The notes below the pieces were generated by a model, which saw nothing but the letters and a program-made list of their open reading frames with translations, made no database searches and was not told the origin of the DNA. A stretch of 64,000 bases of DNA from an uncultured bacterium (lineage in GTDB: Bacteria; Bacillota_I; Bacilli_A; RF39; UBA660): assembly GCA_949296705.1 (NCBI GenBank), contig CASFOW010000042.1, forward strand, positions 25,096-89,095. The letters are read 5' to 3'. Of this stretch, positions 1-51,706 are shown piece after piece. Made by a program: the position numbers and the translations under genes. The first letter of the stretch is position 1. Each line of letters opens with the position of its first letter.

Positions 1-510
1 AGTTAAATTTCTAATTCCTAAGATGTAGGCTCCACCACTAGCGATATTATTAATTATCATTGTACTACCATCTGATGAACTAGGGACTGCTTGTTGCTGA
101 GTAAGATTGTTGCCGCCACTCGGACTACTATCTAACTGTTGTAAATGAGCGACGTCTCGATAAGTATTTGGATTATTTAATAGATAATTTACTCCATCTA
201 GATTAGTTGTGAAATTATAAATCCCCATTGAAATCATTTTAGATAGAAATTGAGGGGCTAAGCACTCAGGCGTATCAGGCAAAAGAATAATAATCTTTTC
301 CACATCTAAAGCCATAGACAGCTTTTGAAGATTTCTGATGTCATGATAGTCTTTCAATGCTGTTAAATCCAGAATCATTCTACCGAAGAAAAAATTACTA
401 AACATTTGAACTAATTCATCGGCATTAAATACCCCATGAATAGATTTGATTACTTCTATATCTAAATTGGCAAGCTCCGCTTGTCTTTCATTGGATATAA
501 TTACATTCAT
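1..510 (-). CDS. Partial CDS, running off the window start. Hypothetical protein with a receiver-like N-terminal region, possibly TadZ/CpaE-like.
   Basis: Minus-strand ORF starts at ATG 510 with RBS GGTGGTGAG 6 nt upstream and has no stop before position 1. It begins MNVIISNERQAELANLDIEVIKSIHGVFNADELVQMFS...EKIIILLPDTPE...GIYNF. The D/D/K spacing loosely resembles a degenerate receiver domain. No Walker A motif was seen in the available part. It is the last visible gene of the Tad-like operon. Confidence 0.3.
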   Translation of the reverse strand, partial: MNVIISNERQAELANLDIEVIKSIHGVFNADELVQMFSNFFFGRMILDLTALKDYHDIRNLQKLSMALDVEKIIILLPDTPECLAPQFLSKMISMGIYNFTTNLDGVNYLLNNPNTYRDVAHLQQLDSSPSGGNNLTQQQAVPSSSDGSTMIINNIASGGAYILGIRNLT

Positions 511-534: not shown

Positions 535-1056
535 TTAAGAATGCCTTGCATTTCTACATAATTCACTGTTATTTCCTGATGAATAAATGGTATCTGTCTC
601 CCCAGTTATCACTAAAAAATTCGCGGCAGCCGGAAAAATCCTATTGATAATTGGTATGTTTACATTAACAAAAGTAGCCACAGCATACTGAGCTCCTTTG
701 TAAGTCAAATTAGAATTATTAGTACCAGTCACATCAGCTAATTCGCATTTTACACAAAAGACAAACTTTTCGCCACTTTCTAAGGTCTGAACATATGGTT
801 CATACCCCATTCTACGACATTTATCTTCATAAATACTAGTAGAAGAAAAAGAGTAATTTAAGCGATTGGCGTAATCATCAATTTTGTCACTGGCACTAGG
901 CGTTAATCCCTCATATTGTTCAATGATTGTTATCAATTGGTTCTTCATATGAAAAGACTTTGTGTAGCTGACACTAAACATCAAAAGTCCTATCATTAAT
1001 ACTAAAAAAACAAATATAGCCTGAAAAGACAAAACACCACCTAATGCTTCTTTCAC
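535..1056 (-). CDS. TadE-like pseudopilin / minor pilin, paralog 1 (173 aa)
   Basis: N-terminus MKEALGG/VLSFQAIFVFLVLMIGLL has a short polar leader, Gly and a hydrophobic helix, like a class III prepilin. Size is typical of the TadE/TadF family. About 35% identity to the adjacent paralog with conserved Cys positions (C..GY, FCxKCE). Located in the Tad-like operon. Confidence 0.5.
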   Translation of the reverse strand: MKEALGGVLSFQAIFVFLVLMIGLLMFSVSYTKSFHMKNQLITIIEQYEGLTPSASDKIDDYANRLNYSFSSTSIYEDKCRRMGYEPYVQTLESGEKFVFCVKCELADVTGTNNSNLTYKGAQYAVATFVNVNIPIINRIFPAAANFLVITGETDTIYSSGNNSELCRNARHS

Positions 1057-1074
1057 GGTATCACCTACTTTACC

Positions 1075-1596
1075 CTATCTTCTCGAATTGCAGAACTCAC
1101 TTGCTTCTTTTGCATGGACATCAGAATAAATCAATGGTGTTTCTCCTGCTATTTTGAAAAAACTAGCGGTAAATGGCAAAATATTATTAACTAGTGGAAC
1201 ATCAAAAGTAACAAAAGTTACAATTGAATAATAGGCGGCTCTACTTCTATCATCATCATTGGGCCTACCTGTAATATCTGCATATTCACATTTGATACAA
1301 AAGCGAACTCCATTTCCATTTTCACTAGTTTTTCCATTATAGACATCATACCCCATTTGTTCGCAAACCGATTCATATTCAGCAGGTAAGAAATAATTCA
1401 TTCCACGAACAACGTCATTTATTTCATGACGTGCTTCTACTGACAATCCCTCATGCTTTTCAATAATATTACGTATTTCGTTTTTTACTCGAAAAGCTTT
1501 TGTATAATTGACAGAAAAAGCCAGTAAACAAGTAATGATTATCATCGCAACAACAATTGCCTGTAATACAAATACGCCACCTACTCCTTCTTTCAA
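1075..1596 (-). CDS. TadE-like pseudopilin / minor pilin, paralog 2 (173 aa)
   Basis: N-terminus MKEGVGG/VFVLQAIVVAMIIITCLL. Tandem paralog of 535..1056 with the same architecture and conserved cysteines. Confidence 0.5.
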   Translation of the reverse strand: MKEGVGGVFVLQAIVVAMIIITCLLAFSVNYTKAFRVKNEIRNIIEKHEGLSVEARHEINDVVRGMNYFLPAEYESVCEQMGYDVYNGKTSENGNGVRFCIKCEYADITGRPNDDDRSRAAYYSIVTFVTFDVPLVNNILPFTASFFKIAGETPLIYSDVHAKEASEFCNSRR

Positions 1597-1654: not shown

Positions 1655-1858
1655 CTAGCCACTAACACAACTTGTACCATTATAGTATTGCCCAGCTGGA
1701 CAGTTTACATCTTGACCGGCATTACCGCTAATTGTATTCCAAGTATCTGTAATCGTATTAGAAATAGTTGGCCACATTACCCAGAAAAAGGCAACAATCG
1801 CTCCTATCGCAATAATTGTTACAACGGTCATATTTAATTCACCAGTTGCTTCTTTCAT
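1655..1858 (-). CDS. Flp-family-like small pilin (67 aa)
   Basis: 67-aa protein MKEATG/ELNMTVVTIIAIGAIVAFFWVMW has a short leader, Gly and a single hydrophobic helix, with size typical of Flp pilins. It shares the MKEaxG leader with the two TadE-like proteins. It lies immediately downstream of tadC in the operon. The sequence does not fit the canonical G/xxxxEY motif. Confidence 0.45.
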   Translation of the reverse strand: MKEATGELNMTVVTIIAIGAIVAFFWVMWPTISNTITDTWNTISGNAGQDVNCPAGQYYNGTSCVSG

Positions 1859-1921: not shown

Positions 1922-2707
1922 TTAAAGATTTGTAAACATGTAAATCATCGCTATTAGAATCAGAACCATAACACCAGCACCAGTCGCTACTAACATAACC
2001 ATAGTTTGTCCTTCCATATGCTCGATTCTTTCTTTGTATTTTTGATCTCTTGCCTTAGCTTGTAAATTAGATACTGTTCTAGAAAACATTAATAAACGTT
2101 CCTGTTTTCTTTCTTGGGAACCTAATCCTAAACGATATAGTAATCTCATCATTCTCATTGAATCACGAACTGGATACTGATTAGCAAAATCCATATAAGG
2201 CTGAATACTAGAATCGCCTGCATCAATTTTTGCAATCATTTCTCTAAGTCCTGGTTTAAATACATCCGGTGCTTCCGGAATTGATTTAGCTAGCGCAACT
2301 GGCACAGTATAGTGCTGTACTAAGATTTCTAATCCCTTTAAATAGTATGGCAACATGACATCAATTTCATGTAAGTGACGTTTATAGTATTTCTTTAAAT
2401 TTGTATATTCTATCTTATATACAAAGTAACCAACTAAAATCGATAACACAATATTAATTAATGATAATTCAGTTAAAAAAACAAAAAGAAAAATAACAAT
2501 AACTAAACCACCATTTTTTAATCGTTTGGCAAATATCTCATCTGGTGTTTTTTTATCCCCATAACGAGCAGCTACTAGAAACTCAAAATCATCTTCTTTT
2601 AATTTATCTAATAGCATCTTATTATCTTGAATAAACTTTTCACCATCAATATTTCGATTATATACTAAGATAAATACAAAAATTGCACCAACAATAAATA
2701 TTTCCAT
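1922..2707 (-). CDS. tadC: TadC-like pilus assembly membrane protein (T2SS-F domain)
   Basis: 261-aa polytopic membrane protein immediately downstream of a TadB-like gene with start/stop overlap at 2707. The order ATPase-TadB-TadC is canonical for Tad loci. Confidence 0.55.
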   Translation of the reverse strand: MEIFIVGAIFVFILVYNRNIDGEKFIQDNKMLLDKLKEDDFEFLVAARYGDKKTPDEIFAKRLKNGGLVIVIFLFVFLTELSLINIVLSILVGYFVYKIEYTNLKKYYKRHLHEIDVMLPYYLKGLEILVQHYTVPVALAKSIPEAPDVFKPGLREMIAKIDAGDSSIQPYMDFANQYPVRDSMRMMRLLYRLGLGSQERKQERLLMFSRTVSNLQAKARDQKYKERIEHMEGQTMVMLVATGAGVMVLILIAMIYMFTNL

Positions 2708-3600
2708 TATTCTTCACCCACATTCTCATTGTAAAACTTCTCACCCTTGAGTAGGAAGTAACTATTTACTAAGATAATACCGTGAAGAATTATCTTTACA
2801 AAGACATTATCTAACAATTGAATATAGGTATCTCTACCTAATAAATATTGAATTAGCATTACCATCAGATATAGCATAATTCCATATTTTAAGAATCCTT
2901 TATGAAAATTTGCTCTTTCCATACGGTCACGGTATACACTTTCTACTAGCATATCGATGTCTAGTTGCATGTTATCTAAAGATTCTCCAGAGTCTCTAGC
3001 TCCTTCTTTGGTAATTTGTAAAAATAATTGATGCATATTTTTAACAATATAATATGGATACTTGGTAGTCATAAATTCGATGGATTCATCGATAGATCCA
3101 TTCTGATAAGCTAGAGAAATCATTAAATCAACATCACTTAGTACAGGATCTTCTAAGACACCTGATGCAACAACACCTTCTAGAGCTTTTACGAAACTTT
3201 GTGTAGTTGCGAACTCCATAATTGTATTTGTCGTATAGATTTGAATTTGTTCAAAGATAAATTCGCTATAAACCCTTTTGCATCTTAGATAAGCAAGATA
3301 AGGAATCGTCATATCTAAGGCAATAATATAGATTACTGAAATCAATATATTATAGAAATATAGATAAGAAATAACTCCGGCAAAAATAGAAAAAGTTACT
3401 ACTTGAATCATATATTGTCTCGGAGTGTATTCTTGCCCTAAATCCTTTGTTTTCTGGCGAATAACTTTAAAGGAATACGGAGCAAAACGATTATACATGT
3501 TCGTTGCTTGTAACGTAATAAAGTGATAGACATTTTGTCCTTTATATTTACGGTAAAAAAGTATAAATAGCGCTATGGCTAATAGAATTAATAATTCCAC
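2707..3600 (-). CDS. tadB: TadB-like pilus assembly membrane protein (T2SS-F domain)
   Basis: 297-aa protein with N-terminal and C-terminal TM segments flanking a cytoplasmic helical domain. It directly follows the CpaF ATPase gene. Confidence 0.55.
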   Translation of the reverse strand: MELLILLAIALFILFYRKYKGQNVYHFITLQATNMYNRFAPYSFKVIRQKTKDLGQEYTPRQYMIQVVTFSIFAGVISYLYFYNILISVIYIIALDMTIPYLAYLRCKRVYSEFIFEQIQIYTTNTIMEFATTQSFVKALEGVVASGVLEDPVLSDVDLMISLAYQNGSIDESIEFMTTKYPYYIVKNMHQLFLQITKEGARDSGESLDNMQLDIDMLVESVYRDRMERANFHKGFLKYGIMLYLMVMLIQYLLGRDTYIQLLDNVFVKIILHGIILVNSYFLLKGEKFYNENVGEE

Positions 3601-3620: not shown

Positions 3621-5099
3621 TTAATTGTTGTTAAAATCCACGATGATTGGTTGAGTTTGATTCACTGTTGGATTTCCCCCTTGAGTTATACCACTACTAG
3701 TTGGTTGCAGTATAGCTTGTCCTAATGTCTGTGTTACTGGCTGTTGTTCGTGTGGTGGAGTTAAAGTTGTCGTTGAACTCTGGGAAGGAGTCGAAATCGG
3801 ATTAGGATTCGGTGTTGGAGCTACTGGTACATTGCCAACAGGATTAGAAACTGATGGTACTGGACTAGATACTGGTGTAATTGTTTCTTTTCTTTCCAAG
3901 GAAGCATTCACTGTCTCTGTTTGTTTGGATATATTATCTCCTGCGGTAGGAACTTTTACATTCTCTACCTTAGGAGATTCTAAATTTGTCGTTGGATTCT
4001 CCCCAATCACATCTTCCAATTTTATTCCCCCATCTTCTTCTTCCGCTCCTTCAAAAGTAGTTGATTCTAGTTCAACATTTTGTGCTAATAGTGAATCGAT
4101 CAAATGCTGACTAGGATTTTTCTTAATAATCTTTCCATTCATTAGTTTCTGATATAAAACATTGTAGACTGGTTTATTATTATCATCGATATAGAATTCC
4201 GTAATTTCATCAATTTCACGATGAAATTTTCCATATTTCTTACTATAGTAAGCTTTAATATGAACGCCTAATTGAACATAACGATAGATCGTACTTAAGA
4301 ATTGATCAACATCTAGTTCTGTTTCCATTAAAGAATACATACGATGTGGAATTGCACTTGCTTTATCTGAGTGGATTGTCGATAAAATATTATGTCCTGA
4401 AGAAATAGAGTTACGAACGGCACTTACAGCTTCGGCACTACGGACTTCTGACAAAAGAATCCATTTAGGGTTCTGTCTCATACAAGTAACTAATACATCA
4501 CTATAAGAAGCGATATTATTAGTTTTCATTGCGACAATATCACGATGTGGATAAATCTTATCTAAGTGTAATTCCAAGGTATCCTCAATCGTAATGATTT
4601 TTTCACTTTCTTTAGTATGGGATGCTAGATATTTGACAAATTCAGTTTTACCTGAACCTGTTTCTCCACAGACGATGATATTACAATGTCCATGAACGCA
4701 TTTAATTAAGAAATCATGAATATCTTTGGTTACATAATCTTCTTTTAATAACGTTTCTTCTTTTAATCGTATCTTAGCTGGTGTCTTACGAATAACTAAC
4801 GCAATTCCGTTAGTTGCAATTGATTCATGGACGAAATTCATACGTAACTCTGGACTTTCCGCATCAAGGAAAGGGCTAGCATTATTGAAAGTTGTCCCCA
4901 TAACGTTGGAACATTGAAAAGCTAACTTTTCTACTACACTATTATTAATGGCGGGATTTTCTACTCTAAGTGAACCTTGGGTTAAAGAACGAATCCAAAT
5001 TTGTCCATTATTCGTGTATGAGATATCGGTGATATCATCATTTTCGATATACTCTCTAAAAGCCCCAAAATCTAATTGTTCAAATAGGTTATCTTTCAT
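3621..5099 (-). CDS. cpaF: CpaF/TadA-family secretion ATPase with a C-terminal Pro/Thr/Ser-rich tail
   Basis: Walker A CGETGSGKTE and the family-typical segment VTCMRQNPKWILLSEVRSAEA, plus a His box. The core of about 350 aa is followed by about 130 aa of low complexity (PVSSPVPSVSNPVGNVPVAPTPNPNPISTPSQSSTTTLTPP...). Confidence 0.85.
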   Translation of the reverse strand: MKDNLFEQLDFGAFREYIENDDITDISYTNNGQIWIRSLTQGSLRVENPAINNSVVEKLAFQCSNVMGTTFNNASPFLDAESPELRMNFVHESIATNGIALVIRKTPAKIRLKEETLLKEDYVTKDIHDFLIKCVHGHCNIIVCGETGSGKTEFVKYLASHTKESEKIITIEDTLELHLDKIYPHRDIVAMKTNNIASYSDVLVTCMRQNPKWILLSEVRSAEAVSAVRNSISSGHNILSTIHSDKASAIPHRMYSLMETELDVDQFLSTIYRYVQLGVHIKAYYSKKYGKFHREIDEITEFYIDDNNKPVYNVLYQKLMNGKIIKKNPSQHLIDSLLAQNVELESTTFEGAEEEDGGIKLEDVIGENPTTNLESPKVENVKVPTAGDNISKQTETVNASLERKETITPVSSPVPSVSNPVGNVPVAPTPNPNPISTPSQSSTTTLTPPHEQQPVTQTLGQAILQPTSSGITQGGNPTVNQTQPIIVDFNNN

Positions 5100-5118: not shown

Positions 5119-5958
5119 TTACTCTGTTGGTAATGGTGCGGGATTTTCTAAATCCAAATCAGTAAACTCAGTTACTTCGTTAATAAAGTCACGTAATGTT
5201 TCACTAGCAATACTTACCTCACCTGGTTCTTCTTTTAGTGATTCATTCGTTGGTACTGGGATAATAGCAACTTCATAAGTACGTAAATATCCAGCCTTTC
5301 TTAATAGAATATGATATTCTTCTGGTAAAGCGAAGATAATTTGTGATGGTGTTTTAACGTTTTCTAAGTCTTCGAATACATCATCACCATTTGAATCTAA
5401 TACCGCAAGAATTTTTACATTCTTTAATAGTTTACCAACCATAATTTTATCTTCAGTATCTGCGGTAATATTTTCTTCATCTACTTTATTGGTTGCTTTA
5501 ATATAGATATCAATATAGTTTCCAGGATAGATCTTGTTACCATAAGTTGTTTCCGTTGTAACGGCTAAGTTCATTAAGACATAATCATCTGGATAGTCAT
5601 ATAGTATTGAATCTGGCAACTCTGATTGGGTAACTACTGCTCTTTGATAGAATAAGCTACCTTGTGGGATTGTGCAATCTGCATTAACATAGTAATTAAT
5701 AATTTTACTAGTGTCAGTAATAACATCTCCCTGTACCATAGCCATTGGTACATCCACGATACCAACCATATCGCTAGTAATTCTTGTTCTAGAAGAAATA
5801 TCTACTAAGGCGTAAGGTACACTAGTTGGATTGGTTTTTTGACTAATTCTGTAATTGTAGAAAAAATACAAGACGACAATTGCGATAACAGTCAAGATTA
5901 TCGTAACTGTATTTTTGTTTGTTAAGAACTTCTTTACTCTGGTTCCTACTCCATTCAT
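5119..5958 (-). CDS. cpaB: CpaB/RcpC-like Flp pilus assembly protein
   Basis: N-terminal TM anchor (TVTIILTVIAIVVLYFFY) followed by a region resembling a SAF domain (ALVDISSRTRITSDMVGIVDVPMAMVQGDVI). It sits immediately upstream of cpaF, as in Tad loci. Confidence 0.55.
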   Translation of the reverse strand: MNGVGTRVKKFLTNKNTVTIILTVIAIVVLYFFYNYRISQKTNPTSVPYALVDISSRTRITSDMVGIVDVPMAMVQGDVITDTSKIINYYVNADCTIPQGSLFYQRAVVTQSELPDSILYDYPDDYVLMNLAVTTETTYGNKIYPGNYIDIYIKATNKVDEENITADTEDKIMVGKLLKNVKILAVLDSNGDDVFEDLENVKTPSQIIFALPEEYHILLRKAGYLRTYEVAIIPVPTNESLKEEPGEVSIASETLRDFINEVTEFTDLDLENPAPLPTE

Positions 5959-6411: not shown

Positions 6412-9402
6412 TTAATCATCGTCACAATCGCCACCGTAGGCATTGTTGCATATGGCAATTTGTTTTCGTGACTGCGCATTATAACCACTTGTATAAGTAA
6501 CATTTCCTGTGTCGTCTAAGAAATTACTTGTACATACTTCACGACCACCTATCGTTGAACAACTCATATCATAGTCCAGATAATTTGTATATCCATCGCC
6601 GTTAAAGTCTCCTACATTCTTGTTGTACTGTCGTATTCGCATGATTTGTTCTGTCGTCAGGATGATGTCGTAATCTACTTCATTTGTATCACTATAGATT
6701 TCATTTCCCTTATATTCGATATCTTCAGTTAACTCAATTGGGTTGATCTTATATCCTAATAGATTATAGATTCGACTATCGGTTGGGATTGCTCCATTTG
6801 TCCAATTCCAACGTGGATTTCTATCATTAGGGAAGACATCGACTAAATCAATCGGTCTATAGATAAAGGTTATTCCAGAATAATCAATCGGTGGTGTATC
6901 TCCGCCAGGGCAATCTGGTCCTGTACAAGTCTCTGGACAATTTGGCCCGGTACATGGCTGATCACAATCTGGGCAATTAGATCCATCTACTTGGGTTGGA
7001 TCATCTGGGTCAATGAATAAATTATTATATACTCCATAGAAGCAATTGATTTGATCACTATAGTCACGAGTTCCAATTCCATTTACATTAACAGTTATAG
7101 TTGCTTTTTTATTGCCCTGACTGAAATATTGGTCATAGCCAATTAAACTAACTCTCTGATTATAATCTAGTGGGATGGATACATTTGTATTTCTGCTCTT
7201 TGGATCCGTATAGTATCTTCTTCCGCCAGCATAGAATTTCTTAGCATCAAAATTAATATTGCCTAAACGTCCGGTATTGGCATCAAATGCTTCATAGCCT
7301 CTGCCCGCTTTGTAAGCAGCTAGACCGGTTGTTTTATTTACATAAGCTTCTGGTAGTTGTAAATCTACTGTTATGGATTTTTCGTTTTTCGTACAGTAAC
7401 TTACTGTTATATTGAATGGAGTAGGTGAATCTCCTAATTGTACTGTTCTTGTACCACCTGGACAGCTTACACCACTATGACTTACATTTTCAATAATATC
7501 GGCATCATTTGAACTTACTGTATAAGTATAAGCCTGATTACCTTTCTTTAAATAAGAATCTGAAATATTAATCGTGTAAGTACCTGTCTTTTGTTGTTCT
7601 TCAGCGATGGATTTAAAGTTCACATATTCATTATTTGAGGCAATCAATTGATTACCGTATAACTCATCTGGATTATCTACACATCCTGCAGGACCTACTG
7701 TTTCAGTAATTGTGCAGATTCCATTATGATTATCACAATATGTTGAGAATGTCATTCCAACATCACCACAGTGTTCAGTATGTACACTACAGGTATACAT
7801 TCCTTTATAATTACCTGCACCGTCTACTGAATCATGACTGAAGCTGCAGCGACTATCCGAGGTAGAAGTAATTACATCGATAATACTCGTCCCAGTTCTT
7901 TCAATAGAATGCTCAAGAAATGTAGTTGGACGTTCTAGTTTGGCATCTAAAAGAGATAAATCTCTAGGGTTATTTTTGCCATACACTGTATTGTAGCAAG
8001 AATTAATACAACTTTGTGTATATTTACCACCATCACACGAATTTACGCAAGCGTCAAAATCGTCATTTGGACCGCTAGTAGGATCTTCACCAGGATCGTC
8101 ACCTTTAGTGACACGACCGCTTCTTTCATCATAGCTGCAGACTGTGTGACAACTGTAAACGCATTTAGGTTTCTTAATAACTTGTTGTTTATGAACTATT
8201 GAACATTGCCTTGTTGCTTGAAATGTTCCTCCATAAGTGAATCCTGCTCCTGCATAGACGAGTTTAGCTCCAACTGGATAAATGTCATATTTTTCCCAAC
8301 AGGTAAGTCCCCAATAGGTACCCGATTGACTATAGACTATTTGATATCCTTGGTGTCGTTCTGTATTACATTGAAAACCATTGCTCGTATCAAGAATTGA
8401 ATATCCATCCTCTGGAGCACTTCCAACTAAGGCTTGCAGATTTTGATAAGCTTTTTGAATATCTTCTCTTAATGTCAGATATTGACTGTAAGTAATTTTA
8501 TCTTCATAACAAACTCCTGCATAGTTAAGTTTTAAAGAGGAAATTAAAGTTTGCAAGTAAGCAGGGTCTGGGGAATAAACTACTTTGCTATCTACTAGAT
8601 ATTGAATATAATCTTCTATTGTTTTACACCCGTAAGAATTATTTGTATCCCTAGAAGTGACTGCTGGGTTATCAAGATTAATACTATCTGCGGTATTGAT
8701 AACGACTTCTACGCTTGCAATATAAGTATTATTACAAGGTGAAGAAGGATCATCAATATAATATTCTAAAGTTATTTTATTGACATCAATCGAACCGGTT
8801 GCAGCATTATATTTTGAAGGTTCAAGATTTCTCAATACATAATAGTTCCCTTCTTTTGACAAAAAATTGCTGTAATCAGTTGAAAATTGTGAAGTGGTAT
8901 TTTTTTCTTCGCCTGGGGCTACATACCGTATCTTTGCGGTGCCACCAAATAAATCTTTTATCTTAAGGGTAATTAAACCATTCGATAAATTTAATTCCAT
9001 TTCAATATTTTTGTATTGATTGGTTTCATCATCAACAGCTAGCACATTATTTAATTCGTATCTTTTATCTTCAGCTGTTGTAGGACAAGTCTGAATACTA
9101 CCATAACTATCTGTATAGCAATTATATCCCTTTTCTACCACATTAAGTTTATATGGCGTTAAATCAGTCGTACCGACTGGATAAGTAACATAACCACTCA
9201 TTATCGCCGCTTCATCGATTTTATCGAGGGTTACGGCAGTTGATACACTTGGATCCCAACTTACTTGGTAGTATCGCTTGTTGGAAAGACAAAAGTTTTT
9301 ATTTTGTAATCCTGTAGCTGCTTCTGTTTTTTGTGGTAATAAAATCACGCAGATTACAATCAAGAAAAAGAAAAGTATTTTTGATTTTCTCATTATGTTC
9401 AC
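6412..9402 (-). CDS. Large secreted cysteine-rich protein (996 aa), candidate pilus-associated adhesin
   Basis: Sec-type signal peptide MNIMRKSKILFFFLIVICVILLPQKTEA/A. Many cysteines, including the cluster NCPDCDQPCTGPNCPETCTGPDCPGG at nt ~6900-7000. No LPxTG-like sorting signal at the C-terminus (ends ...GGDCDDD). Confidence 0.7.
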   Translation of the reverse strand: MNIMRKSKILFFFLIVICVILLPQKTEAATGLQNKNFCLSNKRYYQVSWDPSVSTAVTLDKIDEAAIMSGYVTYPVGTTDLTPYKLNVVEKGYNCYTDSYGSIQTCPTTAEDKRYELNNVLAVDDETNQYKNIEMELNLSNGLITLKIKDLFGGTAKIRYVAPGEEKNTTSQFSTDYSNFLSKEGNYYVLRNLEPSKYNAATGSIDVNKITLEYYIDDPSSPCNNTYIASVEVVINTADSINLDNPAVTSRDTNNSYGCKTIEDYIQYLVDSKVVYSPDPAYLQTLISSLKLNYAGVCYEDKITYSQYLTLREDIQKAYQNLQALVGSAPEDGYSILDTSNGFQCNTERHQGYQIVYSQSGTYWGLTCWEKYDIYPVGAKLVYAGAGFTYGGTFQATRQCSIVHKQQVIKKPKCVYSCHTVCSYDERSGRVTKGDDPGEDPTSGPNDDFDACVNSCDGGKYTQSCINSCYNTVYGKNNPRDLSLLDAKLERPTTFLEHSIERTGTSIIDVITSTSDSRCSFSHDSVDGAGNYKGMYTCSVHTEHCGDVGMTFSTYCDNHNGICTITETVGPAGCVDNPDELYGNQLIASNNEYVNFKSIAEEQQKTGTYTINISDSYLKKGNQAYTYTVSSNDADIIENVSHSGVSCPGGTRTVQLGDSPTPFNITVSYCTKNEKSITVDLQLPEAYVNKTTGLAAYKAGRGYEAFDANTGRLGNINFDAKKFYAGGRRYYTDPKSRNTNVSIPLDYNQRVSLIGYDQYFSQGNKKATITVNVNGIGTRDYSDQINCFYGVYNNLFIDPDDPTQVDGSNCPDCDQPCTGPNCPETCTGPDCPGGDTPPIDYSGITFIYRPIDLVDVFPNDRNPRWNWTNGAIPTDSRIYNLLGYKINPIELTEDIEYKGNEIYSDTNEVDYDIILTTEQIMRIRQYNKNVGDFNGDGYTNYLDYDMSCSTIGGREVCTSNFLDDTGNVTYTSGYNAQSRKQIAICNNAYGGDCDDD

Positions 9403-9459
9403 CTCGCTACTATACTATATATTTCATTATAACATATTTTAATTTTTTGACATAGTTTT

Positions 9460-10263
9460 TTATCCAATTTCTGATGCAGCACCTTCTGCTAACATGTTAA
9501 AGTTTTTACTTTTCGTTACCTTATACTTCTCAATTTCTTCGTCATCTCTCACTTTACGTGCATCGATTACAAATTGTTGTTTCTCAAAAGCGCCAAAATA
9601 TCTAGTACATGTTTTAACAGCAATCAATTCATCATTTTCATTTACATCAATATCATAATCATAGATTGAATTATCGCGCACACTAGCAATATAATCTTTG
9701 ATTTGTTCAGGATTACTCATGCTTCTGTCATTATCTCCTGCATAATCATAGAATCCAATCGCATAAATTTTATAAAGTTCTTCTTTTCCTTCTTTGGTAT
9801 AACTGATATACAAATTATCCTGCGCAAAATCATAATAGGTAAAAGCCATCAAGCCTTCAAAATAATTTAACATGCTCATATCACGAATCGGTGTACTGGA
9901 CACATTAATAATATTATGACCATGTATAACTTCTCTAGTTTCATCGGTATCGTATTCCGAGCTACGCCACGCATAATCAGATATACCATCATCACCATAA
10001 TCAAAGCTATTCAAAACCGCCATATCAATGTTTGTACCTTGTACTTGAATCCAACCAACAGTATAAAAATCTTCATATTTAAATTCTAGGGAATCCTGAG
10101 TTCGATCTTTAAAATTCAAAGTGATACTTGTATCAAACTTACTACCCGTTATACTGAAATAAATAATGGCTATAATTAATACGATAATAACCAAAATGCT
10201 TATTGTAATTAACATTCTCTTTTTTAGATCTAGTCTCTTGTTTTTTGACTTTCTCTTTCTCAT
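9460..10263 (-). CDS. srtB: Class B sortase-family transpeptidase
   Basis: N-terminal signal-anchor. Sequence FYTVGWIQVQGTNIDMAVLNS matches SrtB DIVGWIKLSGTSLNYPVLQG. His motif VIHGHN, Cys motif LIAVKTCTRY (TLxTC-like) and Arg motif FVIDARKV give the His/Cys/Arg catalytic triad in the canonical order. Confidence 0.7.
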   Translation of the reverse strand: MRKRKSKNKRLDLKKRMLITISILVIIVLIIAIIYFSITGSKFDTSITLNFKDRTQDSLEFKYEDFYTVGWIQVQGTNIDMAVLNSFDYGDDGISDYAWRSSEYDTDETREVIHGHNIINVSSTPIRDMSMLNYFEGLMAFTYYDFAQDNLYISYTKEGKEELYKIYAIGFYDYAGDNDRSMSNPEQIKDYIASVRDNSIYDYDIDVNENDELIAVKTCTRYFGAFEKQQFVIDARKVRDDEEIEKYKVTKSKNFNMLAEGAASEIG

Positions 10264-12123: not shown

Positions 12124-13683
12124 CTATTCTCCTTTTAATTGATAAAAATATTGATAAGTTCTAACTGTAAAGTATAGTTCTATATTAGTCGCATTTACCA
12201 TCTCACTAGGTGCTGCGATAAATAAATGATCTCCACGATAATTCGTTAGTAGATAAGAAATATTCATCTCTTTTGTCTCTCCATTTATGGTATAGCGTAT
12301 CTTTCCATAAGTTTTTAAAAAATCGAGAAAATCCTTTTTGCTTCCTTCTTTTAATTTATATTTTGCGTAGAAAATCACTTGATTTTCTTTACTTTCTAGG
12401 GTCGCCTCATAGATAGGACAAGTTTTAGCATTACATTGTTCATAACGATAATCCATCGCATTCGTTAACGCAAAATTAGATAGGCTAAATGTCCATTCTT
12501 TCTCTAAATTGATAGGAACAGTTAACTCTTCGCCGAGAGAGACATTGGCTTTTTCAATAAATTTACTGATATCTCTTACCTGAACCCGAATTCTTTTGGC
12601 GGCATCATTAAATTTACCAGTTCGATAAGTTAATAAAAAGTTACTGTTTTCTTTTGGGGCATCAATCTCAAAAACAAATAAAATATTTTCACTACTAGAA
12701 GCTTTAATTTTCTTACCACTACTATAAAGCGTACCAATATCATTAAAATATAAATTGAATCTTTCAGAAGGGGTATACTGTTGATTATCTATATATAAGA
12801 AGAAATATTCATTACTGATTGGAACATCACTAGTTTGATCATTGGTAATTTTTACATCCAAGATAAAATAGTATTTACTTTTTGCAATTTGATTTCCGGT
12901 ATAATCACGATTAGTGATATAGGCATTCTCTATTTGGAATTTAAGTCCATTTGCGGATACTGCTTCTCCCATACTGTATACTTTATTGACTACAAAAGCA
13001 TAGTGATAGACATTAAATGAAGCTAATAACACAACCAAAACAATTAAAATACTAATACTAAACTTGTGTTCTAAAAAGGTATATTTTATATAACGAAGAT
13101 TTCTTCTAAAGGCTCTAATATAACGATCTTTATCAAAAGTAATCTCTACTTCTACTTCTTCACGATCTTCGTCGTTAATTTCTGCGAATTCTTTGTCTTC
13201 TCCAAATCCAAATCTCTTTAAGTCTAGACCTATGGAACGGATAAGTAATAATAAAATAGCTGGATAATAGGGAATAGTGACAATAAAAGATAAATCTCGA
13301 ATCGTTAACGCAGATACTAAATCAAACTCCTGTGTTACCGTTATCGTAAAGTAATAATAATGATAAATAAAGAAGGCTAACGTGATAATTGATACACCTA
13401 AGATAAATACATAGGAAATAAATGGTTTATCCTTATATTTTAGTAAATAAGCTAAGATTGCGGAAATAATAGTAATCAGTACAATAGCGCCAATAGAAAA
13501 AATATTTACATAGTTACTTATGGAATCTAATTGACTACTATAAATACCGGTTGCGATATAATCTTTTATGAATTGATATAATTCTAATTCTTTCCATAAA
13601 ACAAAAATAACTAGAGCGAGTAAGACTATATTGATTTTCTTAAAGTTACGAATTAAAAAGGCATATGGCTTTCTTAGAATCAC
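12124..13683 (-). CDS. Polytopic membrane protein with a large C-terminal extracytoplasmic domain (519 aa), function unknown
   Basis: GTG start with RBS AGGAGGGG. About 4 TM helices at the N-terminus, an acidic cytoplasmic loop (EINDEDREEVEVE), a further TM, then a soluble domain of about 300 aa. First gene of the operon. Confidence 0.6.
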   Translation of the reverse strand: MILRKPYAFLIRNFKKINIVLLALVIFVLWKELELYQFIKDYIATGIYSSQLDSISNYVNIFSIGAIVLITIISAILAYLLKYKDKPFISYVFILGVSIITLAFFIYHYYYFTITVTQEFDLVSALTIRDLSFIVTIPYYPAILLLLIRSIGLDLKRFGFGEDKEFAEINDEDREEVEVEITFDKDRYIRAFRRNLRYIKYTFLEHKFSISILIVLVVLLASFNVYHYAFVVNKVYSMGEAVSANGLKFQIENAYITNRDYTGNQIAKSKYYFILDVKITNDQTSDVPISNEYFFLYIDNQQYTPSERFNLYFNDIGTLYSSGKKIKASSSENILFVFEIDAPKENSNFLLTYRTGKFNDAAKRIRVQVRDISKFIEKANVSLGEELTVPINLEKEWTFSLSNFALTNAMDYRYEQCNAKTCPIYEATLESKENQVIFYAKYKLKEGSKKDFLDFLKTYGKIRYTINGETKEMNISYLLTNYRGDHLFIAAPSEMVNATNIELYFTVRTYQYFYQLKGE

Positions 13684-13795
13684 GTTTTTCCCCTCCTACT
13701 CTTCTATTCTTTTTCATTATAACCTATTTTGAATAAAAATAAAAGATTTTTTCCGCGCTTTGTGATATACTTTTTAATTATGAGAGGTAGATGTT
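13684..13795. promoter_or_regulatory. Divergent promoter region between the Tad-like operon (minus) and the thioredoxin-like lipoprotein gene (plus)
   Basis: Plus strand carries an extended -10 TGaTATACT about 30 nt upstream of ATG 13796 with RBS GAGAGGT. Minus strand carries TTTTAT-N17-TATAAT upstream of RBS AGGAGGGG and the GTG start at 13683. Confidence 0.45.
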
Positions 13796-14269
13796 ATGAA
13801 AAAATTTAGTTTTATTATTATCTTAGTTGCTCTTTTATTGGTTAGTGGGTGTTCTAAGAGTTATTTAAAAGAAATTTCTTATGATGAATACAAAAAACTA
13901 TTAGAAGATGAGGAAACTTTTATTTTGGAGGTAATGAGTGATGATTGTACGGCTTGTAAAGATTTTCGTCCGAAATTAAAAGATGTTGCTTCTAGTTACA
14001 AAATTGAAGTAAAGTATATCAATATTGATAAGTTAACTGCTGATCAATACGATGAACTTGCTGTTTCAGCAACGCCTACTGTGATTTTTTATATAGATGG
14101 TGAAGAGGAAACAACAGCCGCAAGAATTGTTGGATCAGTAAAAAGAGAAAAGATTATTTCTAAGTTTAAGGCTAGTGGGTTTATTGAAGATGAGGCTTCA
14201 GATCAATCTAATGAAAAAGATAACTCTGTTGAACAAGACGAGCAACAAGAGAAAAACACTTCAAAATAA
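13796..14269 (+). CDS. Thioredoxin-fold lipoprotein with a CxxC motif
   Basis: Lipobox LLVSGC. CTAC (CxxC) motif in DDCTACKDF, with a Trx-like fold pattern (ATPTVIFYIDGEE). Acidic C-terminal tail. Divergently transcribed from the Tad-like operon. Confidence 0.7.
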   Translation: MKKFSFIIILVALLLVSGCSKSYLKEISYDEYKKLLEDEETFILEVMSDDCTACKDFRPKLKDVASSYKIEVKYINIDKLTADQYDELAVSATPTVIFYIDGEEETTAARIVGSVKREKIISKFKASGFIEDEASDQSNEKDNSVEQDEQQEKNTSK

Positions 14270-14295
14270 AAAAGTAGGATTTCCTACTTAGTTTT
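14268..14295. terminator. Bidirectional rho-independent terminator
   Basis: Hairpin AGTAGGA-TT-TCCTACT, T-run on plus strand (TAGTTTT) and A-run upstream. It lies between convergent genes. Confidence 0.55.
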
Positions 14296-15723
14296 AAATA
14301 AATAATATTCATCAGTACTGAAGAGAAGATCATACTTCTCTTTTTCTTGCTGTAAATATGGGTATAAGACATCATTTGGGGCGACAATAAAGTGAGTAAA
14401 ATGGTAAGTGTTAATAAATTTATCTAGTGATAATTGTCCCTTTTGTAGGTTGTAATACTCCTGAAAGATATCTTTTTGATGATTATTTCGTTTTAAAAAC
14501 ACTTCGGCTCTAGAATCAATATACGTCTTTAAACCTCGGTATTCAACATATCCTCCTTCAGAGAAACCCGTATATAAAATAACTTGGTTCTTATCATAGT
14601 GTGATAATAAGTAATCGATAGTGGTTTTTAATGGATTGGTTAGCTCGTGGGGTAAAAAGATAAGAAGTGTTAGCATTAAACCAAATAGAAAAGTAATTAC
14701 TCGTTGCTGATATGCTGTTTTTTTTATTGTTGATATTGGAAGCTGGGGAAAATGCTCCTTTATACAATAGATTAATGGGAGTAATCCACCTAAAAGAAAG
14801 AAAGCAAAACCCTTGTATGAAGAAAGTGCTAAATAGGTTGTACCCAAAAGCAAGCACAAATATTTTAATTTTATCTTTCTTTTTTTAGAAACTAGATAAA
14901 TTATATAAACAGTTAAAACGACAGTATAAATGATTACTCCCATTCGTGTTGCCAATTGTGGTACTTGCATTTCTTGTACAAGGGCATTGATACTAGTATA
15001 TCCATAAGAGGTGAAAATATAAGTAATGGCAGCGATTCCATAGGGATTAAAAAGGCCTGCTAGAAACATCAATATGATACTAGTGTATAATGGTAGTATT
15101 CTTTTTAATTTTCTTTGCTGATAATCTTGAATGGTCATTTCAATGGTATACGGAAGCAAAAATAGAAATAACATGAACCACATTGAAGCGTGTAAATTGA
15201 TTTCTAAGAGAGACAGTAATGGTAAGAACAACAGATATTGTTTTTTTCTAGTTTGTTGATATTTTTCTAATGTGTAGATTAAAATTAATAGAATTAAGTA
15301 AGTAAAAACTTGAGGACGAGTTTGAATAAAATTCATTAATAATAAGCCATCGACTAAAATAGCAAAGAAAATGGATAAATTACGGCGATTATCACTAATC
15401 ACTAGACATATTTTATACAAAAAATACAAAATAAAAAGATTTATTGTGATAATAAGTAAGGATAATCCAAAGCCACCTAACCAATGATAGACTTCGTAAA
15501 AAATAGTAGCAGCTAGATGTTGTTGCATAACAAAGTCTAATCCTTCATGAATAGTAAAAGGCTCCATATAAGGAATACCATGAGTTACTACATATCTACC
15601 CTGATTAAGTAAAAACCAAATGTCATTATCATAACTAGTACTTACGATAATAGATACGGCAAAAGGAATAAAAAAATAGAGATAGGCATATTTAGTAGGT
15701 AAAGAAAAAAACTTTTTTTTCAT
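14284..15723 (-). CDS. Polytopic membrane protein (479 aa), possibly a GT-C-type glycosyltransferase
   Basis: At least 10 predicted TM helices with a soluble C-terminal domain. The architecture resembles GT-C/YfhO-like enzymes. No diagnostic motif was confirmed. Confidence 0.45.
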   Translation of the reverse strand: MKKKFFSLPTKYAYLYFFIPFAVSIIVSTSYDNDIWFLLNQGRYVVTHGIPYMEPFTIHEGLDFVMQQHLAATIFYEVYHWLGGFGLSLLIITINLFILYFLYKICLVISDNRRNLSIFFAILVDGLLLMNFIQTRPQVFTYLILLILIYTLEKYQQTRKKQYLLFLPLLSLLEINLHASMWFMLFLFLLPYTIEMTIQDYQQRKLKRILPLYTSIILMFLAGLFNPYGIAAITYIFTSYGYTSINALVQEMQVPQLATRMGVIIYTVVLTVYIIYLVSKKRKIKLKYLCLLLGTTYLALSSYKGFAFFLLGGLLPLIYCIKEHFPQLPISTIKKTAYQQRVITFLFGLMLTLLIFLPHELTNPLKTTIDYLLSHYDKNQVILYTGFSEGGYVEYRGLKTYIDSRAEVFLKRNNHQKDIFQEYYNLQKGQLSLDKFINTYHFTHFIVAPNDVLYPYLQQEKEKYDLLFSTDEYYLFKTK

Positions 15724-16295: not shown

Positions 16296-16838
16296 TCAAT
16301 TCACATCCATTATACGTTGTTGATGTTGATCTAGAAACTCAACTGCTTTTTCTTTTGATAACGTTCCGCCAGTACTGACTGTTAAAACATCTAATACTTT
16401 ACCATCTTGAAAAACAACTAATGAAGGATATCCAAGAAGATCAGTATCATAGAACTTATTAAACTCTTTAATGAATTTTGTTATATTAGATTCTTTAGTT
16501 AGGTTTAGATAGGTAATGCTATTTTCTAGTTGTCTTTCTGTAACAACATTTTGAAATTCTTCTTCAAATTTACGACAATTTCGATCATTTACAACCCCGA
16601 CATAAAGAATGGCATTTTCATTTTCTCTAATGTAGTTATATACTTCTTCGGTATTAATTTCTTGTACTAATACATTTCCAATAATTGGGGTATTCAATTG
16701 ATAGTTAATACCACTTAAATACCAATTTCTAAGTAAGAGAATAGCAAATATCGTTACAACAAAAATTAAAGCGATTTTGATGTAGCCACCTATGTTATTT
16801 TTATTATTACTACTCTTATTTTTAGTATTTTTTTTCAT
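16296..16838 (-). CDS. Membrane-anchored thioredoxin-fold-like protein without CxxC
   Basis: Lys/Asn-rich N-terminus, then a TM segment and a soluble domain ending ...PSLVVFQDGKVLDV. Single Cys only. Confidence 0.4.
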   Translation of the reverse strand: MKKNTKNKSSNNKNNIGGYIKIALIFVVTIFAILLLRNWYLSGINYQLNTPIIGNVLVQEINTEEVYNYIRENENAILYVGVVNDRNCRKFEEEFQNVVTERQLENSITYLNLTKESNITKFIKEFNKFYDTDLLGYPSLVVFQDGKVLDVLTVSTGGTLSKEKAVEFLDQHQQRIMDVN

Positions 16839-51664: not shown

Positions 51665-51706
51665 ACTTCTTCCCCCTATTAAAATAGATTTCACGAAGAA
51701 TGAAAT

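Follow-up and report, generated by a model that had tools for sequence, protein, structure and literature searches.

How does a gut bacterium of the Bacillota export a protein of about a thousand amino acids (aa) that carries 36 cysteines (Cys), and what handles its disulfides? Firmicutes reportedly exclude Cys from exported proteins. The question is posed by a gene at positions 6412..9402 of a 64,000-nucleotide stretch of an RF39 genome assembly (contig CASFOW010000042.1, positions 25,096 to 89,095; the whole stretch is called the window below). An earlier note, made from the sequence alone, had linked this gene to a lipoprotein gene transcribed divergently from the same operon, and had proposed a dedicated extracytoplasmic disulfide-handling step for pilus and adhesin components, unusual for Tad systems. 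The present analysis supports a part of this proposal. Disulfide bonding of the exported proteins of the locus is strongly implied by their sequences, and the lipoprotein is a recurrent partner. The word dedicated proved too strong, as the adjacent lipoprotein gene is missing at 38 of 59 loci. A disulfide catalyst linked to the locus is plausible, neither universal nor proven. The 'Tad operon' itself is the front part of an approximately 30-kb chromosomal pilus-plus-secretion locus with a Gram-positive type IV secretion system (T4SS) core.

The secreted Cys-rich protein

The 36 Cys of the open reading frame (ORF), 3.6% of its residues, give both the highest count and the highest fraction among the 51 non-overlapping ORFs of the window, for which the median fraction is 1.0%. 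Window proteins outside the locus that have a hydrophobic N-terminus contain at most 0.8% Cys, and the Cys-rich locus is therefore an exception in the window. Reading of the N-terminus revealed a basic n-region (MRKSK), a hydrophobic core and TEA followed by A. Neither an LPXTG motif nor a C-terminal hydrophobic tail was seen in the sequence. The description of a Cys-dense protein with a Sec-type signal and no wall anchor thus holds, and Sec export of the 993/996-aa product is predicted with confidence.

The length of 996 aa given earlier is correct for the ORF, but ATG 9393 is the likely start, which yields 993 aa, because the GTG at 9402 falls within the Shine-Dalgarno sequence GAGGTG (window 9393..9402, minus strand; the ATG lies three codons downstream). 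Gene callers also picked the 993-aa start for the identical database protein P0001 and for contig L090, which has the same sequence as the window and extends past its left edge (position 1). Residues are numbered on the 996-aa ORF throughout. An extended -10-like element, TGTTATAAT, was noticed at ~9422-9431 (9411..9459, minus strand), within the gap of 57 base pairs (bp) that separates the Cys-rich gene from the sortase gene; its sequence suggests an internal promoter for the Cys-rich gene.

The protein had no match in Pfam, NCBIfam or the PDB sequences. A known unrelated family, such as an S-layer protein or a secreted hydrolase, had been named as a finding that would speak against the proposal; neither sequence nor fold comparison gave such a match. 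A word-index search returned 60 homologues of 800-1150 aa, all free of Pfam domains, and a profile search against 1.84 billion representatives returned 1037 clusters at E ≤ 1e-3 and 564 at E ≤ 1e-30. At 50% identity, this unannotated family comprises about 1000 clusters. Among the GTDB species representatives, a scan produced 170 candidate stretches with relatives, and the best 80 (78 distinct loci) were retained. All relatives listed come from uncultured gut metagenome-assembled genomes (MAGs) labelled Bacilli, Tenericutes, Mollicutes or similar, for example Clostridium sp. CAG:417, Mycoplasma sp. CAG:877 and Ca. Scybalousia/Alloscybalousia; we take these MAGs to be RF39-type. A tblastn search against 72,556 plasmids found no match, and the family is therefore absent from known plasmids.

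Fifteen Cys are kept in at least 55 of the 60 homologues, and C345, C368, C400, C452, C456, C465, C469, C556 and C787 are invariant. The four central ones, C452/C456/C465/C469, belong to a twin Cx3C block in which D457, G459 and Y461 are also 100% conserved. The bin that holds this block is 59% identical, as compared with 9-38% in the other bins. In the AlphaFold2 (AF2) model, its four Cys lie on two consecutive helices (447-457 and 463-474). We infer a helical hairpin stapled by two disulfides, presenting the invariant residues in a DGGKYTQ loop.

The number of Cys proved to follow a rule. With the signal peptide removed, it was odd in 57/60 word-index homologues, in 55/59 independently extracted GTDB ORFs and in 227 of 244 non-identical family members, with a range of 21-45; these sequences are related, and nominal p-values overstate their independence. 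Because the counts stay odd across 21-45, Cys appear to have been gained and lost in pairs many times, with one remaining unpaired, and the spread itself argues for many independent paired changes. The count within the C-terminal domain was even (0, 2 or 4) in 60/60. Co-variation pointed to the pairs 948/957, 985/993, 647/670, 519/538, 95/106 and 259/298, and weakly to 422/563 and 414/574. Conserved Cys pairs in five proteins of the locus, together with the parity rule in the large one, are the grounds on which disulfide bonding is strongly implied. For the Cys-rich protein, the evidence argues strongly for nearly all Cys being placed in intrachain disulfides (~17), with exactly one unpaired. 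The latter would belong to the invariant set and is most probably one of C345, C368, C400, C556 or C787.

The AF2 model (mean pLDDT 75.4, pTM 0.58) consists of beta-rich domains (~aa 31-240), a helical bundle (246-326), a beta-sheet core (342-433), the helical hairpin (447-474), beta domains (504-792), a low-confidence segment (806-849) and an alpha/beta C-terminal domain. The N-terminal 360 aa are the least conserved part of the protein, and the hairpin and the C-terminal domain the most conserved. Foldseek searches against PDB and BFVD gave a probability of at most 0.25 for all but one local BFVD match, to FirrV-1-A51 of Feldmannia irregularis virus (189 columns, probability 0.63, E 0.06). 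Several candidate identities were rejected. Ubiquitin-specific protease (USP)-type proteases and the maturation proteins of single-stranded RNA phages, which are pilus binders, recurred among the Foldseek matches at a probability of at most 0.1 and TM < 0.1, and are most likely noise. A papain-like Cys protease or transglutaminase was dismissed because no His is conserved (11% at most in 244 sequences), which excludes a Cys-His enzyme; in the papain-like test, the USP-like Foldseek matches of the model had a probability of at most 0.02. A thioester/isopeptide adhesin (TED) was likewise set aside: there was no Pfam or NCBIfam match and no TQxA(I/V)W motif, and the sole conserved Gln is Q463 in DGGKYTQSC.

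The divergent lipoprotein

The earlier note had described a thioredoxin-fold lipoprotein with a CTAC site, encoded divergently from the operon, and this was borne out. The product scored 44.8 bits against PF00085 Thioredoxin (cut-off 23.5) and 27.5 against PF13098 (cut-off 27), and 112 bp separate its gene from the first operon gene, which is on the other strand. The lipobox reads LLVSG-C19 (LPAM_1 18.2 bits, slightly under the cut-off of 20), and T93-P94-T95 is the cis-Pro loop. G18-C19, C51, C54 and T93-P94-T95 are conserved in 22/22 lipoproteins. With regard to family, orthologues have a precomputed match to PF20207 (PedC-like). The Pfam TraF score was 23.9 bits against a cut-off of 23, covering just 72/224 profile positions, and the NCBIfam matches to TrbB (6.7e-7, 29.1 bits against 132), TraF-like (15.2 against 232) and PedC_BrcD (2.2e-5) were all below cut-off. 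Membership of the DsbA family was rejected, with no PF01323 match and a mature core of ~105 aa that is too short for the helical insert.

We took a census of the 59 GTDB species loci with a judgeable upstream region. The lipoprotein divergently adjoins the operon in 21 of them, at 69-171 bp in 20 and at 2189 bp in one. Metagenome loci L001-L004, L087 and L089 have the same arrangement. The neighbour on its far side differs in at least eight ways (479-aa membrane protein, SpoU, acetyltransferase, TPM-like, BipA, M50 peptidase and others). Because the position is constant while this neighbour changes, the lipoprotein travels with the locus and not with the flank. On a TadA tree, it is present in 16/17 members of the window clade and in two smaller clades, a distribution compatible with an old association followed by losses. 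A copy at this position in relatives lacking the operon, which the earlier note had regarded as counter-evidence, was not found. The terminator scan gave 3 terminator-like sites as against 0.3 expected from shuffles. The promoters of the divergent region were inferred by reading only, and a promoter consensus scan of this region gave nothing above chance.

Two further genes lie near the lipoprotein gene. A 479-aa polytopic membrane protein (14284..15723, minus strand) is encoded between SpoU and the thioredoxin gene. It has no Pfam or NCBIfam match and, among the loci examined, occurs in the close relatives L001-L003 and L009 and in L029, with a phmmer match in 8/86 loci. At 16296..16838 (minus strand), there is a 180-aa membrane-anchored PedC-like/DUF6568 thioredoxin-like protein without CxxC. 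It has a single conserved Cys (xxxC-R), replaced by C-T-A-S-x3-C in some orthologues, and its gene is kept beside Peptidase_U32 and SpoU in many relatives, whether the lipoprotein is present or absent.

The composite locus

The features within the window are collected in Table 1. The order of genes around the Cys-rich gene is constant: DUF4352 membrane protein, immunoglobulin (Ig)-like/DUF6273 protein, sortase, Cys-rich protein, DUF5411 protein, CpaB-like protein and ATPase, continued by two membrane proteins, a 50-70-aa pilin-like protein, one or two 150-180-aa paralogs and a 335-aa protein. Each of the eleven operon proteins of the window was found in 65-81 of 86 loci, the range being 72-81 when the two TadE-like paralogs (65/86) are set aside. 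The membrane protein, the Ig-like protein, the SrtB-like sortase and the Cys-rich protein constitute a surface module. This module is joined in the locus to a short-pilin filament module with a VirB11/TadA-type ATPase, and to the Gram-positive T4SS core encoded outside the window.

Table 1 Positions of the locus features in the window
Feature	Position	Strand	Evidence
Cys-rich secreted protein, 996-aa ORF	6412..9402	minus	ORF list
Sec-type signal peptide, aa 1-28	9319..9402	minus	sequence reading; A29 invariant 60/60
Twin Cx3C helical hairpin, GPNxDFDxC-x3-C-DGGKYTQS-C-x3-C-Y, aa 444-474	7981..8073	minus	family's most conserved block
Hypervariable Cys/Pro/Gly/Asp linker with CPDC...CPGG run, aa 793-852	6847..7026	minus	pLDDT and homologue comparison
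Conserved C-terminal alpha/beta domain, aa 849-996	6415..6858	minus	R849, F857, P858, R861, N866, W867, P888, D910, Y911
Thioredoxin-fold lipoprotein, PedC-like type, CTAC site	13796..14269	plus	Pfam Thioredoxin 1.4e-11
112-bp divergent intergenic region	13684..13795	.	TATAAT-like -10 toward operon; TGnTATACT-like -10 toward thioredoxin gene
Bidirectional terminator-like hairpin right after thioredoxin stop codon	14272..14289	.	terminator scan
Polytopic membrane protein, 519 aa, extracellular DUF4352-like domain; first operon gene	12124..13683	minus	C417 and C422 invariant 67/67
Membrane-anchored Ig-like and DUF6273 surface protein, 613 aa	10279..12120	minus	Cys 99, 123, 304, 318 in 71-73/73
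Class-B-like sortase homologue, N-terminal membrane anchor	9460..10263	minus	H116, T-C219-T-R
DUF5411 protein, N-terminal hydrophobic helix	5971..6399	minus	PF17424 4.3e-46
CpaB/RcpC-like protein, weak match	5119..5958	minus	PF16976 25.2 bits, cut-off 28.8
Secretion ATPase, VirB11/TadA/CpaF superfamily	3621..5099	minus	PF00437 1.2e-26, 93.7 bits, cut-off 24.9
Two polytopic membrane proteins at TadB/TadC position	2707..3600, 1922..2707	minus	synteny only
67-aa short pilin-like protein, MKEATGELNMTVVTIIAIGAI..., C-terminal Cys pair	1655..1858	minus	N-terminus conserved in 53 loci
Two tandem 173-aa paralogs, 'TadE-like' by position and hydrophobic N-terminus	1075..1596, 535..1056	minus	no hidden Markov model (HMM) match
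N-terminal 170 aa of 335-aa cytoplasmic protein at TadZ position, runs off window	1..510	minus	no HMM match

The sortase homologue resembles the SrtB enzymes of Clostridioides difficile and Clostridium perfringens in the PDB (1.6e-7), and its match to NCBIfam srtB (TIGR03064) had an E-value of 1.9e-8 at 34 bits, against a cut-off of 153.75. H116 and T218-C219-T220 are conserved in 74/75, and in an alignment this Cys falls on the catalytic one of C. difficile SrtB. R221 is conserved at an atypical position. PF04203 gave no match in the window protein and weak matches in relatives. In the Ig-like/DUF6273 protein, the motif G-x-G-T-x3-P-Y occurs twice (~aa 398-406 and 602-610), the second copy at the C-terminal end, and both copies are kept in at least 90% of 73 orthologues.

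The plain Tad system assumed earlier did not stand. Only the ATPase scored above cut-off, and the 'Tad' label, weaker than stated, rests solely on this match (PF00437) and on the sub-threshold CpaB match, for which TIGR03177 gave 6e-8 (32.2 bits against 71). The best NCBIfam matches of the ATPase were VirB11 (4.8e-34) and then conjugal TadA (1e-27), both under their cut-offs, leaving the subfamily ambiguous. Neither 2707..3600 nor 1922..2707 had any match in Pfam or NCBIfam, T2SSF included (E up to 1 and 0.1), and they agree with TadB/TadC in position and topology only. The pilin-like protein matched no Flp or pilin HMM and is without a G/xxxxEY motif, although its N-terminus is near-invariant in 53 related loci, MK(E/A)ATGEL(N/S)(M/L)TV(V/I)TI.AI.A....FFW.MWP.I; its C-terminal Cys pair occurs in just 9/53 loci and shows no strict correlation with the presence of the thioredoxin. 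The conserved Cys ascribed to the TadE-like paralogs held for C100 (25/26) and C78 (18/26), but not for the remainder of their 4-5 Cys. No prepilin peptidase was found among the window ORFs (Pfam scans) or in the loci examined; it may be elsewhere in the genome.

Beyond the 335-aa gene, L090:11627-20522 encodes a 112-aa PF18895 T4SS-pilin-like protein, a 487-aa secreted protein, TrbL/VirB6-like and TraC-like proteins, a VirB4-like ATPase and a SpoIID+NlpC/P60 hydrolase; over L090 and L092, the hydrolase is of the SpoIID+NlpC/P60 or M15 type. In L090, P-loop_TraG/AAA_10 and SpoIID+NlpC/P60 scored above cut-off and TrbL_4 below it (22.5 bits against 27). In the related contig L092 (5631-17896), a 250-aa protein comes next, then a coupling protein of the VirD4 type (T4CP) and finally housekeeping genes. 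Here TrbL_4 had a precomputed match (E ≤ 1e-5), as did the T4CP families T4SS-DNA_transf, TrwB_AAD_bind and TraG-D_C. Downstream of the operon, T4SS pilin-like genes are present in 55/58 species loci and TrbL-like genes in 43. No relaxase was seen among the genes up to the housekeeping flank of L092, the sole locus followed to its end and searched without MOB-specific HMMs. The locus thereby encodes another Cys-rich secreted protein, the 487-aa product of L090:12054-13517, which was found in 55/58 loci extending that far. It contains 17 Cys (3.5%) and has a signal peptide and, at its C-terminus, a membrane hairpin that resembles VirB2/T4SS_pilin.

The locus proteins differ greatly in their rates of change. 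With the window orthologue as reference and 41 loci, the median identity was lowest for the Cys-rich protein (24%). It was 32-35% for the 519-aa membrane protein, the Ig-like protein, the sortase and the 173-aa paralogs, 47% for the DUF5411 protein, 52% for the CpaB-like protein and 60% for the ATPase. The two membrane proteins at 63-70% were the most conserved of the window-encoded locus proteins. A separate observation concerns the VirB4-like ATPase (L090:16170-17957), which is 80-98% identical in its top 120 clusters at 90% identity (P0290-P0409); the contrast with the ~20-25% of the Cys-rich protein is extreme for one locus.

The locus often has Peptidase_U32 and SpoU genes in its vicinity, an arrangement that speaks for vertical inheritance. 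The window also encodes PolC (47027..51694, minus strand) and DnaE (54113..57076, minus strand). CdaA/YbbR, Ddl, a Mur ligase and MurI are present too, as is a PASTA kinase with a PP2C phosphatase. Such a gene content is ordinary for a Bacillota chromosome. Because Ddl, the Mur ligase, MurI and the PASTA kinase are encoded, the organism has peptidoglycan.

Interpretation and alternatives

The explanation that we favour combines a disulfide-rich recognition subunit with a lipoprotein catalyst. The conserved core and C-terminal domain would dock the Cys-rich protein to the machine or the cell surface, and the variable N-terminal third would contact the target. By analogy with the Cys-rich TraN, the protein would then be an adhesin or target-recognition subunit. 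The rate pattern fits an exposed, target-facing protein with conserved machine-docking parts. The PedC/TrbB-like CxxC lipoprotein may act at the outer face of the membrane, where it would form or reshuffle disulfides in the Cys-rich protein and in other Cys-bearing exported proteins of the locus. Candidate clients are the Ig-like protein with its two invariant pairs, the 519-aa protein with one pair, the Cys-bearing 173-aa paralogs, the downstream 17-Cys protein and, in those lineages where it has the pair, the pilin. Lineages without an adjacent lipoprotein gene would use an enzyme encoded elsewhere. Taken as a whole, we give this explanation an even chance.

Several observations weigh against it, beginning with the relatedness of the sequences in the parity counts mentioned above. 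No ligand-binding domain was recognised in the Cys-rich protein, and no LPXTG or NPQTN-type sorting signal was found in the locus proteins, the Cys-rich one included. The CxxC dipeptide of the lipoprotein varies (CTAC, CSAC, CSSC, CSHC, CVHC, CPYC, CINC, CVAC), and Pfam scans of the ORFs in the 64-kb window revealed no DsbB, VKOR or CcdA. The remaining points concern the tie between lipoprotein and locus. The Cys content of the large protein is nearly the same without the lipoprotein as with it (3.2% vs 3.5%), and the same Cys are conserved. The thioredoxin gene forms a monocistronic unit, equipped with a promoter-like site and a terminator of its own. The most distant relative found, the CSAC lipoprotein P0163 (42% identity), lies in an unrelated context with no such operon.

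These last points would be expected if the lipoprotein were a general housekeeping thiol-disulfide oxidoreductase of the extracytoplasmic space, standing beside the locus by inherited synteny. The 38/59 loci that lack the gene retain all conserved Cys. Presence throughout clades of the TadA tree is also compatible with one ancestral placement followed by losses, and the second, PedC-like thioredoxin-like gene stands nearby beside housekeeping genes. However, the exact position and orientation (69-171 bp, divergent) are held despite the changing far-side neighbours, and the 100-odd clusters of at least 51% identity that could be checked are all beside the operon. In addition, the other exported window proteins are Cys-poor, which leaves few other evident clients. 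We regard the housekeeping role as possible, though on the unlikely side.

The Cys-rich protein might instead be a structural, envelope-spanning part (wall-crossing conduit, collar or alignment piece) with a task that falls to secretin/RcpA or VirB9/10 in diderms. There is one copy per locus, fixed between the sortase and the DUF5411/CpaB-like genes, and conservation is strong in its core and C-terminal domains. Dense disulfide cross-links would be apt for a rigid scaffold, and the unpaired Cys could allow covalent oligomers. Against this, the Cys-rich protein evolves faster than any other of the locus, and its N-terminal third and its linker are hypervariable, a pattern typical of exposed, target-facing proteins. 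A membrane anchor or wall-binding domain was not found in it, and Foldseek gave no fold similarity to secretins or VirB9/10. A structural part is therefore an unlikely reading of the protein.

A reductive lipoprotein, which would keep the unpaired Cys or the catalytic Cys of the sortase reduced in the manner of ResA, CcmG or TlpA, appears quite improbable. A Thr before the cis-Pro typically marks thioredoxin folds of the reductase or isomerase type and not DsbA, and the lipoprotein has it (T93-P94), together with a minimal ~105-aa thioredoxin core lacking the helical insert of DsbA. A conserved free Cys and a sortase Cys would both need protection in an oxidising compartment. The gut lumen, however, is already reducing, a CcdA/DsbD-type electron supplier was not found in the window, and the nearest named families, PedC/BrcD and TrbB, are isomerases or oxidases.

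The compact run CPDCDQPCTGPNCPETCTGPDCPGG (aa 810-834, nt 6900-6975) carries six Cys in 22 residues, with C-x2-C and C-x4-C spacing, and had been taken for a knotted or metal-binding module. It lies in the linker between the last beta domain and the C-terminal domain, which varies from 14 to 114 aa and from 0 to 10 Cys over the 60 homologues. Pro, Gly, Asp and Asn abound in the linker, which is often built of tandem C-x-G-x-x-C units. The six-Cys form is limited to the closest relatives of the window protein (6-9/60 homologues), and pLDDT is below 50 for aa 806-849. The Cys count of the linker is even in 43 of the 48 non-zero cases (nominal p = 1.4e-8, for related sequences). A knottin-like or metal-binding module with a function of its own is very improbable: regular C-x2-C/C-x4-C spacing does occur in metal sites, but the length, Cys number and low pLDDT speak against one, no His or other ligand residue is conserved, and the even counts and tandem variants fit short disulfide loops. 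The evidence argues strongly that the CPDC run is a disulfide-stapled spacer or hinge joining the body of the protein to its conserved C-terminal domain.

The favoured explanation, an adhesin or recognition subunit with a lipoprotein catalyst, can be extended to the unpaired Cys. This residue might be functional and tether the protein covalently to a second copy of itself, to a subunit of the filament or to a target molecule (thioester-like or by disulfide exchange), with the lipoprotein as a dedicated isomerase that sets the ~17 disulfides but spares the thiol. The protein would then be the recognition head of a hitherto undescribed, relaxase-less chromosomal pilus-plus-T4SS machine by which genome-reduced, RF39-type gut Bacilli interact with other cells. 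We consider this extension rather unlikely in its full form.

In any case, an exported protein with ~35 Cys and an 'all paired but one' rule has long been kept in presumably anaerobic gut bacteria. No DsbB/VKOR-type partner was found in the window, which raises the question of what drives oxidative folding in these organisms. The large unannotated family marks a conserved composite pilus/T4SS locus in at least 170 species-level genomes of a common uncultured gut lineage.

Comparison with known systems

A literature search for RF39 with Tad or pilus, and for Tad pili with disulfide or thioredoxin, returned no description of this system. Tad/Flp (type IVc) pili are also found in Gram-positives, e.g. 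Bifidobacterium breve. The locus shares with them an ATPase of the CpaF/TadA superfamily, a CpaB/RcpC-like protein, two polytopic membrane proteins, a 50-70-aa pilin-like protein, two minor-pilin-like paralogs and a Tad-like gene order. It differs in having no HMM matches for TadB/C, Flp, TadE/F or TadZ, a pilin without G/xxxxEY, no prepilin peptidase in the window and an ATPase that matches VirB11 best. It also adds a sortase, DUF5411, the ~1000-aa Cys-rich protein and the T4SS core.

Disulfide catalysts dedicated to pili are represented by TcpG of Vibrio cholerae, BdbDC of Bacillus subtilis (for ComGC) and MdbA of Actinomyces. Like the bacteriocin isomerases PedC/BrcD, they are extracytoplasmic thioredoxin-fold enzymes tied to a specific exported, disulfide-bonded product. 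All of these are, however, DsbA-like or bacteriocin-locus enzymes, mostly of aerobes or facultative organisms. In the present case, no DsbB/VKOR partner was found in the window and the client would have ~17 disulfides.

Gene-context embedding has flagged DUF5411/CpaF/PilC operons of Roseburia, Ruminococcus and Eubacterium as a predicted secretion system yet to be characterised (Miller et al. 2022, PMC9523054). They resemble our locus as Gram-positive gut operons in which a CpaF-type ATPase and a membrane platform protein are encoded together with DUF5411 and a large surface protein. Their hosts are Clostridia and an internalin-like protein is mentioned, whereas the Cys-rich family, a thioredoxin, a sortase or a T4SS linkage was not reported (PMC9523054).

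Patescibacteria have a relaxase-less chromosomal MPF-FATA-type T4SS with VirB2-like pilins (PMC12102498). The likeness extends to uncultured hosts with reduced genomes, a chromosomal T4SS of the monoderm type, PF18895 pilin-like genes and a cluster without relaxase. The phylum is different, and no Tad-like module, Cys-rich protein or thioredoxin lipoprotein was described there (PMC12102498).

The closest parallel is the F-type T4SS, where TrbB is a disulfide isomerase with TraN (22 Cys), TraU and TraH as putative clients (PMC11315126). There too, a secretion or mating locus has its own thioredoxin-fold protein and a large Cys-rich surface protein for target contact (PMC11315126), and VirB4-, VirB6- and VirD4-like genes are shared. 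The unusualness claimed for a disulfide enzyme at such a locus is not supported, as thioredoxin-fold enzymes are already known for such machines (F-plasmid TrbB/TraF). Here, by contrast, the host is monoderm, the T4SS core is FATA-like, no relaxase was seen, and the enzyme is a PedC-like lipoprotein that scores far under the TrbB cut-off and whose gene is missing at roughly two in three loci. No similarity to TraN was detected in the Cys-rich protein. Thioredoxin-fold helpers encoded together with pili and T4SS are of a known kind. What is new is the monoderm setting in a Cys-avoiding group, a protein family with a one-free-Cys rule and a composite pilus/T4SS locus in an uncultured gut lineage. 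The locus can be seen as a monoderm counterpart to TraN/TrbB of the F plasmid, and the Cys-rich protein as a candidate determinant of partner or host specificity.

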